Below are positions 14,858 to 57,858 of a DNA stretch of 59,605 nt, one piece after another. Source of the DNA: Patescibacteria group bacterium (GTDB lineage: Bacteria; Patescibacteriota; UBA1384; XYA2-FULL-43-10; 1-14-0-10-43-13); NCBI GenBank assembly GCA_041649155.1, contig JBAZNP010000001.1:739183-798787 (forward strand), read 5' to 3'. A model generated the notes under the pieces. The model was given only the letters and a program-made list of their open reading frames with translations, made no database searches and was not told the DNA's origin. The position numbers and the translations under genes were made by a program. The first letter of the stretch is position 1; every line of letters starts with the position of its first letter.

Positions 14858-14973
14858 GTATTTGGGGAGAATTAAAAAAGGCGCAAATCACGCCACTTTT
14901 ATTACTACAATATTACTATAACATATTCTACATGAAAGTACAGACTTTTCTGAAGTATGTGCTCGCCCACAAC

Positions 14974-15061
14974 GTCATTCCCGCGAAGGCGGGAATCCAG
15001 AAACTATTATATGGATCCCCGGGCACCACTCTCAAGCTACACCGCTGGTCCCGAGGATGAC
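14974..15061. repeat. REP/dRS3-like palindromic element
   Basis: GTCATTCCCGCGAAGGCGGGAATCCAG...TGGATCCCCGGG...CCCGAGGATGAC; GTCAT/ATGAC termini. Confidence 0.7.
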
Positions 15062-15121
15062 AAGGAGAGATGGTGAGCATTTACTTTCTGAACAATATAA
15101 TATGTATAAATTTTTGTCTGT

Positions 15122-15657: not shown

Positions 15658-16563
15658 TTAGATATTTTTCTCAAAATTGGAGTGGAGTTTAAATTTCATA
15701 ATATTTTTCTCCCAGTCATCCCCTATCACAAAATTTTCATCTTGGCCGGCGCCGAGAAGGGTCAAGTACTCGACATCTTTAATATCAATGCCCATTAGTC
15801 TGCATGCCAGCCAGTCAGCTGCAATCGGATCGGATGACGCTATAGCAAAATGAGCTGGAACCATGTGACCATTGACTGGTCCATTACCTTCCATTGCTTC
15901 AAAAGCGTCCAGAACAGCAAGCTTTAGTGGTATTTTTTCATATATGGTTCTAATATTTTCATTTATAGCTTTAGCGCCTTGGTGTATTAAGACTTTATTA
16001 TTTTTCGGTAGTCCCAGTGACTCTTTAAATTTATTCATGGCTTTTGACATGGTCGGAATGGATCGTAATAAAGAACCGACAGCAATATTTTCAACTGCTC
16101 CTGTATAAATAGCAGCATCATGGGTTTTGGGTGGTGAAACGGAGATTAAGTAATCTGAATTTAATATTGTTTTAGCAACTTGTCCGTTCCATTTTTTACC
16201 TCTTGAATTGATCAGGGGGATTGTTCCATAATCATCTGTGTTTAGATCAACAATGGAAAAATCGTATTTTTCCTGCAGGCGTAAATAATCAAAATTTTTG
16301 AAAGCAGTCAGTGTGTCTCCGACGCCTACTCCTTCAGCTAAGGTAATTTGTCTTTTAACGTATGGTTTGATGAAGTCTAAAACGGCATCCAATGCTTCTG
16401 CATGTGTGGCGGCCAAGCGAACATTGTCAGTGACACAGCTTGTCTTAACTACAACTCGTTTAGCATTTTTTAATCCGGAAGTAATTTCACTCTTTATCAA
16501 AGACAAACATCTATCAATGTTGTATTTGCGGTCACCTGATTTTATGAATGATATTTTACTCAT
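15658..16563 (-). CDS. DUF362-like protein
   Basis: ATH, AEG, PKTHD, LDAFEAMEGNGP, SSDPIAAD; overlaps mpg stop. Confidence 0.75.
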   Translation of the reverse strand: MSKISFIKSGDRKYNIDRCLSLIKSEITSGLKNAKRVVVKTSCVTDNVRLAATHAEALDAVLDFIKPYVKRQITLAEGVGVGDTLTAFKNFDYLRLQEKYDFSIVDLNTDDYGTIPLINSRGKKWNGQVAKTILNSDYLISVSPPKTHDAAIYTGAVENIAVGSLLRSIPTMSKAMNKFKESLGLPKNNKVLIHQGAKAINENIRTIYEKIPLKLAVLDAFEAMEGNGPVNGHMVPAHFAIASSDPIAADWLACRLMGIDIKDVEYLTLLGAGQDENFVIGDDWEKNIMKFKLHSNFEKNI

Positions 16564-17162
16564 TTTTTACTGATAAATTGGTTATTTTTTATGTAAAATC
16601 GCCAAGGATATTCTTTGCAATGTTGCGCATAGTCGACGCCTATTCGGGTAGTGCAGATAATATCTTTTTCCGATACTTCTTCTTTGTTATCCTCTATGTA
16701 AATATTATCCGATTTTATGAAATCTGTGGTGTGGAAATCTCCGGTAATTCCGAACGCCACCGAAAGTTTACCAGGCCCTGTGGCAAGTTTTTCATTTAGT
16801 TTTACAAATTTATTATCGTTTATTCTATCTGAGATAATGCTTTGACCTTCTATAATCTCGACTGAACGTATCAATATGCCTCCGACGCCATTTTTCGTGT
16901 GTGCAACAACGTTAGTTAGCCAGAAAATTCCATAATTCAAATAAACATATAAATGGCCAACTTCGCCAAACAAGCCCTCAGTTCTTTTGGTAAGCCCTTT
17001 GCTTGCATGGCAGGCCAAATCATCCGTGCCCATGTAGGCTTCAGTCTCAATAATTTTTCCTACGACTCTTCCCTCTTCTAAATCAGTAACTAAAAACTTA
17101 CCAAGCAATTCTTTGGCCACTGTCACTGTGTCTCGATCAAAAAAAGAACGTTCAAGTTTCAT
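16560..17162 (-). CDS. mpg: 3-methyladenine DNA glycosylase (AAG/MPG family)
   Basis: VAKELLGK, IIETEAY, LYVYLNYG, GPGKL, TRIGV, PWRFY. Confidence 0.95.
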   Translation of the reverse strand: MKLERSFFDRDTVTVAKELLGKFLVTDLEEGRVVGKIIETEAYMGTDDLACHASKGLTKRTEGLFGEVGHLYVYLNYGIFWLTNVVAHTKNGVGGILIRSVEIIEGQSIISDRINDNKFVKLNEKLATGPGKLSVAFGITGDFHTTDFIKSDNIYIEDNKEEVSEKDIICTTRIGVDYAQHCKEYPWRFYIKNNQFISKK

Positions 17163-17197: not shown

Positions 17198-17809
17198 TCA
17201 CTTACCGAATTTGCGTATTACGCCTTTTACTTTGCCTTGTATAGTGACTCTTTTTTTGGCAAAATGCATTGGTTTCATGGTGCGATTTGCCGGCTGAAGC
17301 CTGATCCCTGTTTTTTCATTATAAAATCTCTTTAGAGTGGCATTTTCATTGTCAACCAGTGCTACTACGATATCACCATTTCTAGCCGAGTTGCTTTGTT
17401 CGATAATAACGTAATCACCTTCCAGAATCCCGTCTTCAATCATTGAATTTCCTCTAACTCTGAGAGCAAAAGTTTTCCTCCCCATCATATCCCGTGGAAT
17501 GTCGATTGTTTCATGAGTTCTTATGGCTTCAATCGGTCTTCCGGCGTCGATTACTCCTTCGAGCGGAATGTTGAATATTTCACATCCATCGTCAAAAGAC
17601 GGAGTTAACTGAATAGTTCTGGCCTCCATAGCGTCTTTAGTGATATAGCCTTTTTCTTCAAGAATATTGATGTATTCTGCTACCGTGCCGGTTGAAGAAA
17701 AATCAAAATAGTATGCGATTTCCCGAAAGCTTGGAGCATAGCCGTTTTCGTCGATGAACCCTCTTAGATACTCAAGAATTTCTTTTTGTCGTTTTGTTAA
17801 TGGAAACAT
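17198..17809 (-). CDS. lexA: SOS repressor LexA (start corrected to 17809)
   Basis: LTKRQ..IL, GYAPSFREIA, DAG cleavage site, GNSM serine, ATLKR lysine; AAGGAGG RBS. Confidence 0.97.
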   Translation of the reverse strand: MFPLTKRQKEILEYLRGFIDENGYAPSFREIAYYFDFSSTGTVAEYINILEEKGYITKDAMEARTIQLTPSFDDGCEIFNIPLEGVIDAGRPIEAIRTHETIDIPRDMMGRKTFALRVRGNSMIEDGILEGDYVIIEQSNSARNGDIVVALVDNENATLKRFYNEKTGIRLQPANRTMKPMHFAKKRVTIQGKVKGVIRKFGK

Positions 17810-17825
17810 GTTACCTCCTTTAAGT

Positions 17826-17894
17826 GTTCGCTTTTTGTTTTCCAAACAAAACTCGAACATCTTCATTATCGAACAAAAACCAAACAAGTGTCAA
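17826..17894 (-). promoter_or_regulatory. lexA promoter with three RAAC-N7-RAAC candidate operators
   Basis: TTGACA (17889-17894)-18 bp-GATAAT (17865-17870); motif copies at 17826-17840, 17844-17858, 17871-17885. Confidence 0.6.
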
Positions 17895-17989
17895 CAACTT
17901 ATCTTGTGGACAACTTTACTAATTTGAGATCATTATTCAATATAAAAAAATATGTTTGACAAAAAATAGGCTTGAGACTAATTTTAAGG

Positions 17990-18190
17990 TGTCCCTTTCT
18001 TAAATTGGAGTGTTCCTGTGAGTTAAGGCATAGAAACGCTCCAAGTGCATCATACCCTTCATTCCACATTCATTGGGTTATTAGTTTGTAAGTGCAAGAT
18101 GCGGGCTGCAGCGCACTATCTGCAGATCTTCTTTCTTCGTTCTCCTTTCAAAGCTTACCAGGGCGGCACAAATTAGTGCCGCTTTTCTCT
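17990..18190 (+). ncRNA. Candidate structured small RNA
   Basis: TTGACA-17-TAATTT upstream, several hairpins, GCGGCAC/GTGCCGC-TTTT terminator, no credible ORF. Confidence 0.35.
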
Positions 18191-38253: not shown

Positions 38254-39341
38254 TATATTTCTTCTAAAATTTTAAGAATATTTTTAGCTGTTTTGTTCCA
38301 AGAAAATCGTTTAATTTGAATTTTGCCTTTAGATATTAAATTCTGCTTTATCTTTTTATCAAAAACTATAGAATTAATTGCTTCGGAAATTTCACTAACG
38401 TTTTCAGGATTAACCAAAATCGCAGCATCGCCCGCCACTTCTTTTGATGTTGGAATGTTTGAGGTTATAACCGGAATGCCGCAGGCCATTGCTTCCAGGA
38501 TTGGTAGGCCAAAACCTTCATAAAGACTAGGGAAAATCAATCCATCTGAAAGTGCATAAAGATTAGCTAATTTTTGGTCGGACATATATCCGGTTGTAAT
38601 AATATCTTTTTTAAAATTTTTATTTTCATTAATCTTTGCTTCAATTTCGTCGTAACCATAACCTTTTTTGCCAACCAGAACTAACTTATGATCGGTTTTT
38701 GATTTTTTCTTAAATTCTACAAACGCCTCAATAATATTTATTATATTCTTTCTTTTTTCTAGTCTGCCGACAAAAATCAAATATGGTGAGTTTACTTTTA
38801 AAATTTGCTTTGGTTTTGATATTTTTTTATAAATATTGCTATCGAATGCTAGTGGTACGACGTTTATTTTCTCTTCAGGAAAAGTATGAAATTTTAAGAA
38901 GTCTTTTTTGTTTGCTTCAGAGCTAAAGATAATCCTTGCAGCCTTATTTAGTGCTACCTTTATCGCAGCTTCCTGAAGCATTAATTCATATGGAGAATAG
39001 GCTTTGGGAAAAAATTTAAATGCTAGATCATGTATGAATACGGCGGTTTTTTGTGGGGAAAATGCTGGTATTGCGTTTGTAACTTGTAAAAATTTTTCAG
39101 GTCTGTCTCTCATGAGAGCCAGAGGCAACCTGAATTTATTCCATAATCTTGGAAAGGGAATGAGCTTTTCCTGAAAGTTCTTATTTTGTTTTAGGCTTTT
39201 GTCGATTGGTTTGTTGCTATAAAGAGAGTAGACGTTTTTCTTGTCAATTTTTTCTAAATTTAAAATTATTTGATAAACAGTATTATCAATTCCAGTTTTG
39301 TGTTTCAACGCAGTTTTTGATGCATCAATTCCAATTAACAT
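38253..39341 (-). CDS. Glycosyltransferase family 4
   Basis: FIHDL, VGRLEKRKN, FPSLYEGFGLPILEAMACG. Confidence 0.94.
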   Translation of the reverse strand: MLIGIDASKTALKHKTGIDNTVYQIILNLEKIDKKNVYSLYSNKPIDKSLKQNKNFQEKLIPFPRLWNKFRLPLALMRDRPEKFLQVTNAIPAFSPQKTAVFIHDLAFKFFPKAYSPYELMLQEAAIKVALNKAARIIFSSEANKKDFLKFHTFPEEKINVVPLAFDSNIYKKISKPKQILKVNSPYLIFVGRLEKRKNIINIIEAFVEFKKKSKTDHKLVLVGKKGYGYDEIEAKINENKNFKKDIITTGYMSDQKLANLYALSDGLIFPSLYEGFGLPILEAMACGIPVITSNIPTSKEVAGDAAILVNPENVSEISEAINSIVFDKKIKQNLISKGKIQIKRFSWNKTAKNILKILEEI

Positions 39342-45530: not shown

Positions 45531-45710
45531 GCTTCTTATTCTAGCACAAAATAAAAAAAAGCGAAGACCAAACTTGTCTGTTCCGGTAAAAATACACGAT
45601 CGACGATATTTACCGGAACAAAACATTTAACATTATGTTTGATAAATGTTTCGCCTTGTTTTTATCTGCCTTTGACAATATAATATTATTGAGTAGATGT
45701 CTTAAGGAGA

Positions 45711-56493: not shown

Positions 56494-57747
56494 TTATTCC
56501 TTCCAATATTTCTTATTCTTTAAGTTCTCTGGCAAGTGAGACTTATTTGAGTACATTTCATATCCTTTGCCAAAGCCGAAATCCCTCATCATTTTTGTTG
56601 GAGCATTTCTAATATCTAGAGGAATTGGCTCTAATCTTTTATTAACCACATCATCTTTTGCTGCAGCATAGGCGTCATCGACAGCTCGTGATTTTGGCGC
56701 CTTGGCAAGGTAAATAACTAACTCGGCAACGATGACATTCGATTCCGGCATTCCAACAAAGTGAACTGCCTGCTGTGCGGATGTAGCCAATATCAATGCT
56801 TGTGGATCAGCCATACCAATATCTTCCGCAGCAAAACGAACCAGACGCCTGATTATATACAAAGGATCTTCTCCGGCTTCGAGCATTCTAGCCATGTAGT
56901 GTAACCCTGCATCAACGTCAGATGCTCGCAGCGACTTATGCAAAGCAGAAATGGCGTCATAGTGACCATCAGCTCCCTTGTCATAACGGATGAATTTCTG
57001 CTGGATCGATTCTTCTGCCAGTTTTTCATCAATTACAATCTCATTTTTTACTACTTTTGCCGAAATAATTGCCAATTCGAGTGCATTGTAAGCATCTCTG
57101 GCATCTCCTTCGCTTAGTTCCGCAATTCGTTTTGCTGATTTTGCTGTAATAGATATCTTAATGATTTTCTCTTTGAATATCTTGGGGAAGTATTTTGAAG
57201 GATCTTTGTTTATCTTCTTGATCGCTTGATTTATTAATTTTACAACATCGTTTACTCCGAGTTCTCTAAAGTGAAATACGCGAGCTCTTGATAAGAGCGG
57301 AGCGTTAATCTCAAATGATGGATTTTCCGTTGTTGCTCCGAGCAAGACTATAGTGCCATTCTCTACATGAGGTAAAAAAGCATCCTGCTGGGACTTATTA
57401 AATCTGTGAATTTCGTCGACAAATAATATTGTCAATTTTTGATATAGCTCGAGATTGTTTCTGGCCTGTTCAATAATTTTGCGTGCGTCCCCTACTCCGC
57501 CAGTTACAGCGGAAAAGAAAACGAAATTTGATTTTGTCTTCTCGGCTATTATTTTTGCCAGTGTGGTTTTGCCACAACCGGGCGGCCCCCAGAATATCAT
57601 GGGGAATATTCGATCCGATTCGATAATTCTTCGTAAGAGCTTGTCTTTTCCCAATATGTGTTCCTGTCCGACAAAATCCGATAATTTCTCAGGACGAAGT
57701 CTCTCGGCTAGAGGGTGTTGAATTGTATTTGAAAATAAATTATCCAT
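56494..57747 (-). CDS. rarA: Replication-associated recombination protein A (RarA/MgsA; start 57747)
   Basis: PLAERLRP, WGPPGCGKTT, FVDEIHRFNKSQQDAFLP, TTENPSF, HKSLRASD, EDIGMADP. Confidence 0.97.
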   Translation of the reverse strand: MDNLFSNTIQHPLAERLRPEKLSDFVGQEHILGKDKLLRRIIESDRIFPMIFWGPPGCGKTTLAKIIAEKTKSNFVFFSAVTGGVGDARKIIEQARNNLELYQKLTILFVDEIHRFNKSQQDAFLPHVENGTIVLLGATTENPSFEINAPLLSRARVFHFRELGVNDVVKLINQAIKKINKDPSKYFPKIFKEKIIKISITAKSAKRIAELSEGDARDAYNALELAIISAKVVKNEIVIDEKLAEESIQQKFIRYDKGADGHYDAISALHKSLRASDVDAGLHYMARMLEAGEDPLYIIRRLVRFAAEDIGMADPQALILATSAQQAVHFVGMPESNVIVAELVIYLAKAPKSRAVDDAYAAAKDDVVNKRLEPIPLDIRNAPTKMMRDFGFGKGYEMYSNKSHLPENLKNKKYWKE

Positions 57748-57771
57748 ATTTATATCATACAAAAAAATACC

Positions 57772-57786
57772 GAACAAAAGAAGAAC
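57772..57786. promoter_or_regulatory. Candidate LexA-type operator GAAC-N7-GAAC upstream of rarA
   Basis: GAACAAAAGAAGAAC at the expected -35 position relative to TATGAT (57754-57759). Confidence 0.5.
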
Positions 57787-57858
57787 AAGAAATAAAAACT
57801 GGCAATTAACTCAAATCTACGTTAAAATAAATAAATAAAACGATTACTTGGAGGAAAA

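Follow-up and report, generated by a model that had tools for sequence, protein, structure and literature searches.

Tandem TGTTYGG repeats in the lexA and rarA promoters of a Patescibacteria genome are probable operators of its main LexA repressor

Three copies of a short direct repeat lie at the promoter of lexA in this Patescibacteria group bacterium, and a fourth copy lies at rarA, which raises the question of whether these repeats are the binding sites of the LexA repressor itself. In the original prediction, they were described as RAAC-AAAAnnn-RAAC and were proposed as a candidate LexA box, through which lexA would regulate its own expression. The present analysis leads to the same reading: with a probability of roughly 0.9, the elements are operators of the main LexA repressor of the cell. 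This reading is strongly supported because the motif is conserved in the core promoter of lexA, recurs at dinB, rmuC and rarA, is enriched in the genome, and is accompanied by a LexA protein that looks canonical.

The window, which means the whole stretch of DNA that was analysed, has a length of 59,605 nt. All four copies are exact matches to RAACAAAANNNRAAC, at 17826-17840 (minus strand), 17844-17858 (plus strand), 17871-17885 (plus strand) and 57772-57786 (plus strand), as had been reported. The window contains 5 matches to the pattern, where 0.25 would be expected by chance, and none of 100 shuffles reached 5. The fifth match, at 39177-39191 (minus strand), was absent from the earlier account; it is probably a chance match, because it is located inside a gene and its score with the extended matrix is as low as 4.5. 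In the whole genome of 989,589 bases (0.99 Mb), RAACAAAANNNRAAC has only 10 matches, three of which are at lexA.

The form of the repeat was determined using the 195 nt around the lexA start in 30 relatives from the family or order of this genome, which have LexA proteins with 79-94% identity to this one. Among named records, those of Candidatus Berkelbacteria and of MAGs designated 'Patescibacteria group' come closest to this LexA. The position counts over the lexA sites of the relatives give, as the conserved unit, an 18-bp tandem repeat TGTTYGG-N4-TGTTYGG, which has an 11-bp period and the geometry GTTC-N7-GTTC, and 55 of 58 sites have a T as the third base of its T-rich 4-nt spacer. In a dyad search carried out without a prior pattern over all combinations of 4-mer, gap and 4-mer, TGT-N7-TGTT ranked first, and the pattern-free count of TGTT-N7-TGTT was 25/30 for the lexA upstream regions versus 1/30 for those of recA. 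As the tandem repeat found by both the alignment and the dyad search is longer and has a period of 11 bp, RAAC-AAAAnnn-RAAC is the reverse complement of its core. The direct repeat itself is thus real, whereas the unit that is conserved according to the alignment and the matrix is the longer TGTTYGG-N4-TGTTYGG, and the supposed A-tract spacer has to be replaced with the T-rich spacer of 4 nt containing one nearly invariant T. The alphaproteobacterial-like geometry that had been recognised is retained, since GTTY-N7-GTTY is contained in the longer unit with its cores 11 bp apart.

Of the 30 relatives, 27 have one or more 18-mers that differ from TGTTCGG-N4-TGTTCGG at no more than 4 positions in the lexA promoter, where the motif overlaps the spacer between the -35 and -10 hexamers. 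The aligned lexA upstream regions share the block TTGACA-n-TGTTYGGnnTnTGTTYG(G/A)TAnnAT; downstream of it they have CCGAACAAAAAnCRAACA, a further block in inverted orientation. In some genomes of family f4, matches occur at three successive 11-bp steps, so that four heptads follow one another. Patescibacteria that are related more distantly, at the class level, keep the architecture with slightly different heptads.

The features of the lexA locus in this genome are as follows.

17198-17809, minus strand: lexA, 203 amino acids, assigned by Pfam and structure alignment, with its ATG at 17809-17807.
17889-17894, minus strand: -35 hexamer TTGACA of the lexA promoter, found by the promoter scan and kept in the alignment of relatives.
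17865-17870, minus strand: -10 hexamer GATAAT of the lexA promoter, found by the promoter scan, separated from the -35 hexamer by an 18-nt spacer.
17869-17886, minus strand: operator O1, TGTTTGGTTTTTGTTCGA, matrix score 26.4, at the same position in 27 of the 30 relatives.
17842-17859, minus strand: operator O2, TGTTCGAGTTTTGTTTGG, matrix score 25.0, also present in relatives G004 and G007.
17825-17842, plus strand: operator O3, TGTTCGCTTTTTGTTTTC, matrix score 17.7, inverted relative to lexA and abutting O2.
17814-17819, minus strand: ribosome-binding site AGGAGG of lexA, read from the sequence.
17905-17913, minus strand: DnaA-box-like element, TTGTCCACA, 10 nt upstream of the lexA -35 hexamer.
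16560-17162, minus strand: methylpurine-DNA glycosylase gene (Pfam PF02245), 35 nt downstream of the lexA stop codon.

The two hexamers of the lexA promoter match the consensus at 11 of 12 positions in the promoter scan, and O1 occupies the whole spacer between them together with the first 2 nt of the -10 hexamer. The earlier promoter reading, in which one copy was placed between TTGACA and GATAAT, is confirmed by the coordinates and the promoter scan, and the other two copies were also correctly placed between the promoter and the ribosome-binding site, with O2 and O3 at 17825-17859 and the ribosome-binding site at 17819-17814. O1 and O2 are in the forward direction on the lexA sense strand and O3 is inverted; O2 and O3 therefore form a 35-bp mirror pair downstream of the promoter. 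When the transcription start site is placed from the position of the -10 hexamer, the pair would extend from about +1 to +34, and O2 from about +1 to +17. An inverted downstream unit corresponding to O3 is found in most relatives in the alignment of the lexA upstream regions.

The glycosylase gene is probably co-transcribed with lexA as an operon, because both genes are on the same strand with a gap of 35 nt and because the glycosylase gene adjoins lexA on the same strand in 8 of the 30 relatives. On the other side of lexA, the search for a structured RNA in the 400-nt upstream gap gave no Rfam match at the gathering threshold and no convincing one at E values up to 10, and blastn shows that this gap is unconserved in the relatives except for 47 nt in the same genus. 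The opposite strand of this region has a TTGACA at 17957-17962 (plus strand) and, about 200 nt beyond it, a strong, terminator-like hairpin at 18160-18185 followed by a T run, which could together mark a small divergent transcript. The candidate region (17957-18190, plus strand) has no Rfam match, and its sequence is unconserved beyond the genus. The word TTTGTCAA occurs at the matching place in several relatives and may represent the same -35 element as the TTGACA at 17957-17962.

Further sites were sought using a scoring matrix built from the lexA-promoter sites only. The matrix was seeded with a consensus of our choice, and the concern that this raises is lessened by the dyad search as well as by the independent gene sets. 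In the whole genome, 11 sites have a score of at least 20, as compared with 0.45 expected from order-3 Markov simulations, which corresponds to an enrichment of about 25-fold, and 9 sites have a score of at least 22, as compared with 0.1 expected. The motif is thus enriched over the AT-rich background, a point on which the original prediction had proposed that it be tested. A borderline site at 45636 of the window, with a score of 12.0, is located between a Sua5/YciO/YrdC-family gene (PF01300) and a phosphoglucose-isomerase-like gene and was left uncounted.

The site at rarA is described by the following features.

56494-57747, minus strand: rarA/mgsA, an AAA+ recombination-associated ATPase of 417 amino acids (Pfam PF12002, PF16193 and PF00004).
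57770-57787, minus strand: rarA operator, TGTTCTTCTTTTGTTCGG, with matrix scores of 22.2 and 15.2 and a weak third unit that reaches 57759.
57754-57759, minus strand: -10 hexamer TATGAT of rarA, read from the sequence, 6 nt upstream of the ATG.

The operator ends 10 nt upstream of TATGAT and covers the -35 region. The earlier statement that the fourth copy lies over the -35 region of rarA is therefore borne out by the positions of the operator (57787-57770) and the -10 hexamer (57759-57754). The rarA mRNA is apparently leaderless, because the -10 hexamer is only 6 nt from the ATG and no ribosome-binding site is present at 57745-57759 (minus strand). The Andersenbacteria-type lexA genes share this leaderless layout, as TATACT-GTTCGT-ATG.

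In addition to rarA, the top matrix sites in this genome are located at rmuC, a UvrD-like helicase gene, a cluster of small ORFs, and a RhuM-family gene, whose promoter, TTGACC-site-TATTAT, has the same layout as that of lexA. Further top sites lie inside a mobile element with genes for replication relaxation and a serine recombinase. The sites overlap promoter elements, as at the RhuM-family gene and at C1:113225, where CATAAT directly adjoins the site. The strong sites at C1:111122 and C1:111210 have no obvious gene downstream. The latter region, C1:111122-111238, which is outside the window, consists of two tandem modules 88 nt apart, in each of which a LexA-type site is followed 2 nt later by TTATCCACA. 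The modules are located in a 460-nt gap between convergent genes with no ORF after them, and the same gap also contains a copy of a promoter/5'UTR module that is found before two nearby small membrane-protein genes. The rmuC operator is at -240 in this genome versus -32 to -100 in the relatives, because a stretch that reads as G+C-rich and repeat-like (C1:728666-728887), with the translation ...IPAFAGMT..., intervenes between the operator and rmuC. The same peptide reading recurs in an ORF of the window at 14928-15080, and the stretch looks like a small inserted repeat element.

When the relatives were scored with the lexA-trained matrix, a site was found upstream of dinB, the gene for the Y-family polymerase, in 25 of 30 relatives, and upstream of rmuC in 18 of 27, where 2 of the 27 loci are without upstream sequence. 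For rarA, 9 of 30, including this window and representing two families, have a site with a score of at least 14.8; the site upstream of the UvrD-like helicase gene is weakly conserved (3/31). No site was found upstream of recA in the relatives (0/30), and in this genome the matrix gave no site upstream of recA, uvrA or ruvB, the best score upstream of recA being 2.3. The expectation that the motif would stand upstream of repair genes thus holds for dinB, rmuC and rarA and fails for recA in the relatives and for uvrA and ruvB in this genome. The genes recA, uvrA and ruvB are classical SOS genes, and a site upstream of recA is common, though not universal, for LexA operators. Judging from its upstream sequences, recA appears to be constitutive and outside the control of LexA. 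A gene for a Y-family (IMS-domain) polymerase was found in 50 of 61 relatives, and none was found in this genome, in the congener G001, or in a few other relatives; where the gene is present, it usually has a LexA-type site upstream. No ribonucleotide reductase gene was seen among the targets of LexA-type sites in this genome.

The protein encoded by lexA has the N-terminal LexA winged-helix DNA-binding domain (PF01726, 1.2e-18) and the C-terminal S24 peptidase domain (PF00717, 7.2e-31), and it aligns over its full length with the LexA structures of T. maritima and E. coli. Ala89-Gly90, Ser122 (in GNSM) and Lys160 (in TLKRF) align with Ala84-Gly85, Ser119 and Lys156 of the E. coli protein; LexA therefore looks canonical and cleavable. 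The genome encodes three further LexA-like or S24 proteins, and the motif is absent from the promoters of all three genes, which ties it to the main LexA. A second LexA, encoded at C6:6028-7536 (plus strand) outside the window, is 42% identical to the main LexA; it forms an in-frame fusion with a D12-class (Dam-like) DNA adenine methyltransferase (PF01726, PF00717 and PF02086), and its promoter is without the TGTTYGG motif. Open frames of a length similar to this fusion (486-632 amino acids) are present in at least 8 relatives.

Given that the genome has a G+C content of 37.5% and that one of the five matches in the window (39177) is probably fortuitous, the repeats might be regarded as chance matches in AT-rich intergenic sequence with many T tracts. 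The probability of this explanation is practically negligible, since it is refuted by the shuffling and comparative controls: the window and the genome contain 5 and 11 sites against 0.25 and 0.45 expected, respectively, the latter under the order-3 Markov model, the position of the site is kept across about 30 genomes, and the recA upstream regions, which have the same composition, give 0/30. It is also very improbable that the true LexA site is a palindrome, formed by the O2/O3 mirror pair with the centre TGTTT-N3-AAACA in a Verrucomicrobia-like or Gram-positive-like manner, and that the direct repeats are incidental to it. The 35-bp inverted repeat of O2 and O3 exists in this genome and in G004 and G007; however, most relatives are without O2 and thus without the palindrome, their upstream and downstream units being 29-44 bp apart, and each of the sites at rmuC, rarA, dinB and the RhuM-family gene consists of one direct repeat that lacks an inverted partner. 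The palindrome was rejected as the true site because single direct repeats are what most relatives and all targets other than lexA possess. A Cheo-type palindrome was likewise ruled out, as CGAAC-N4-GTTCG has 0 matches in the genome.

A factor other than LexA, such as a LexA-like or S24 paralogue or a regulator of replication stress, might control lexA, dinB, rmuC and rarA through the repeats. The exclusion of recA from the targets, the three additional LexA-like or S24 proteins, and the DnaA-like box adjoining several sites are compatible with such a factor. However, the motif is present in the main lexA promoter of nearly every relative whether or not paralogues are encoded, the promoters of the paralogues themselves are without it, the half-site covaries with the recognition helix of LexA across phyla, and the pairing of lexA with dinB is a signature of the SOS response. 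We consider this explanation quite unlikely, and the main LexA remains the preferred candidate for the protein that reads the repeats.

The covariation becomes apparent outside the Patescibacteria. The LexA proteins nearest to this one outside the group, with identities of 43-52%, are found in Gemmatimonadota, Acidobacteriota, Nitrospinota and Poribacteria, and their lexA promoters carry direct repeats with an 11-bp period (loci L091/L092 of Longimicrobiales, L063-L065 and L075 of Acidobacteriota, L094/L095 of Nitrospinota, and L093). The Longimicrobiales promoter (L091/L092) has a perfect TGTTCGG-AGCC-TGTTCGG, that of Acidobacteriota UBA6911 has TTTCACC-N4-TnTCACC, and that of one unclassified MAG has TTTCGCC-TAAC-TTTCGCC. 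When offsets from 7 to 16 were compared over 24 such promoters, 12 matches of at least 6/7 were obtained at offset 11 and 0-6 at each of the others. The recognition helix of the UBA6911 protein, whose half-site is TTTCACC, is SLNAVFKHL versus SLATVHEHL, and helices of the form (T/L)(G/A)TV..(Y/H) accompany the TGTTCGG half-site in Patescibacteria and Gemmatimonadota. The change of the half-site together with the recognition helix is weak but consistent evidence suggesting that LexA reads the motif. The 11-bp-period repeats in Gemmatimonadota, Acidobacteriota and Nitrospinota bear on whether tandem-site recognition by LexA had a single origin or multiple origins. A LexA box of the GTTC-N7-GTTC type is reportedly present in Acidobacterium capsulatum as well (Mazon et al. 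2006).

From the observed sequence anatomy, conservation, enrichment and gene associations, we infer the following model, which covers the binding of LexA, how many dimers occupy an operator, where transcription starts, and induction. The 11-bp period places both half-sites on the same face of the helix, and one LexA dimer is assumed per 18-bp unit, its N-terminal winged-helix domains being arranged in tandem instead of face to face. At lexA, LexA bound to O1 between the -35 and -10 hexamers would exclude RNA polymerase, and O2 and O3, which extend from about the transcription start to +34, would contribute cooperative binding or a roadblock. The rarA promoter would be controlled by a single operator over its -35 region. 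After DNA damage, RecA filaments would trigger the self-cleavage of LexA at Ala89-Gly90, with Ser122 and Lys160 as the catalytic residues. The cleavage is predicted to release lexA, probably together with the downstream glycosylase gene, rarA, rmuC, the UvrD-like helicase gene, the RhuM-family gene and the genes of the mobile element, and in the relatives it would also release dinB. The analysis thus provides a well-supported model of the operators together with an outline of the regulon, consisting of lexA, dinB, rmuC and rarA and excluding recA, for an uncultured Berkelbacteria-like lineage.

The DnaA-box-like element beside the lexA promoter was considered separately. TT[AG]TCCACA is present upstream of lexA, at about 10 nt from the -35 hexamer, in 16 of 30 relatives, as compared with 0/30, 0/25 and 0/30 for the upstream regions of recA, rmuC and rarA, respectively (0/85 in all). 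In this genome, the box adjoins LexA-type sites at five places, namely, 17905-17913 (minus strand) of the window, C1:85000, C1:111142, C1:111230 and C1:738088; the pair of box and LexA-type site at the promoter of the UvrD-like helicase gene is kept in G004, and three other box-bearing sites are without an obvious gene. The same box is used at the chromosomal origin next to dnaA. The possibility that the box near lexA derives from a neighbouring oriC was rejected, since dnaA, the densest cluster of boxes and the minimum of the GC skew are all at C1:340-380 kb, and lexA is near the skew maximum. A tentative interpretation, which we regard as possible and rather doubtful, is that the lexA promoter acts as a composite switch, which the replication initiator DnaA reads as well as LexA. 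If this is true, the amount of SOS repressor would depend on both DNA damage and the status of replication initiation. Because the genus is without a Y-family polymerase and recA appears to be outside LexA control, the response on the composite-switch reading would be reduced to helpers of recombination and repair, namely, rmuC, rarA, the helicase and the glycosylase.

Read as LexA operators, the repeats resemble the known LexA box of Alphaproteobacteria. Both are head-to-tail repeats over the promoter, and their GTTC-like cores are 11 bp apart; the unit found here is longer (TGTTYGG), has C or T at its fourth position and a T-rich spacer, and does not include recA among its targets. The alphaproteobacterial box is given as the direct repeat GTTC-N7-GTTC in a passage of PMC8565304. 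The Gram-positive Cheo box, CGAAC-N4-GTTCG, and the Verrucomicrobia motif, TGTTC-N4-GAACA, share the half-site core (T)GTTC(G) as the same word with the present unit; however, both are inverted repeats, whereas the half-sites here point in the same direction.

The LexA-binding motif and SOS network of Patescibacteria are said to have been described by Sanchez-Osuna, Barbe and Erill (Environ Microbiol 2017;19:3465), reportedly with an emphasis on ribonucleotide reductase genes as targets. The motif of that study reportedly resembles the present one in the bacterial group, in being a direct repeat, and in its location at the lexA promoter and at translesion-polymerase genes. The sites at rmuC and rarA, the probable lexA-glycosylase operon, the exclusion of recA, and the absence of a Y-family polymerase gene from this genome may be details specific to the present lineage. 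A passage of PMC7739468 counts Patescibacteria, with reference to the 2017 study, among the cases in which LexA evolved the recognition of direct repeats independently. Current views therefore stand, as the literature already contains the GTTC-N7-GTTC geometry and, for Patescibacteria, a LexA motif of the direct-repeat type, and the finding is correct and largely ordinary because the Patescibacteria direct-repeat LexA site was published in 2017.
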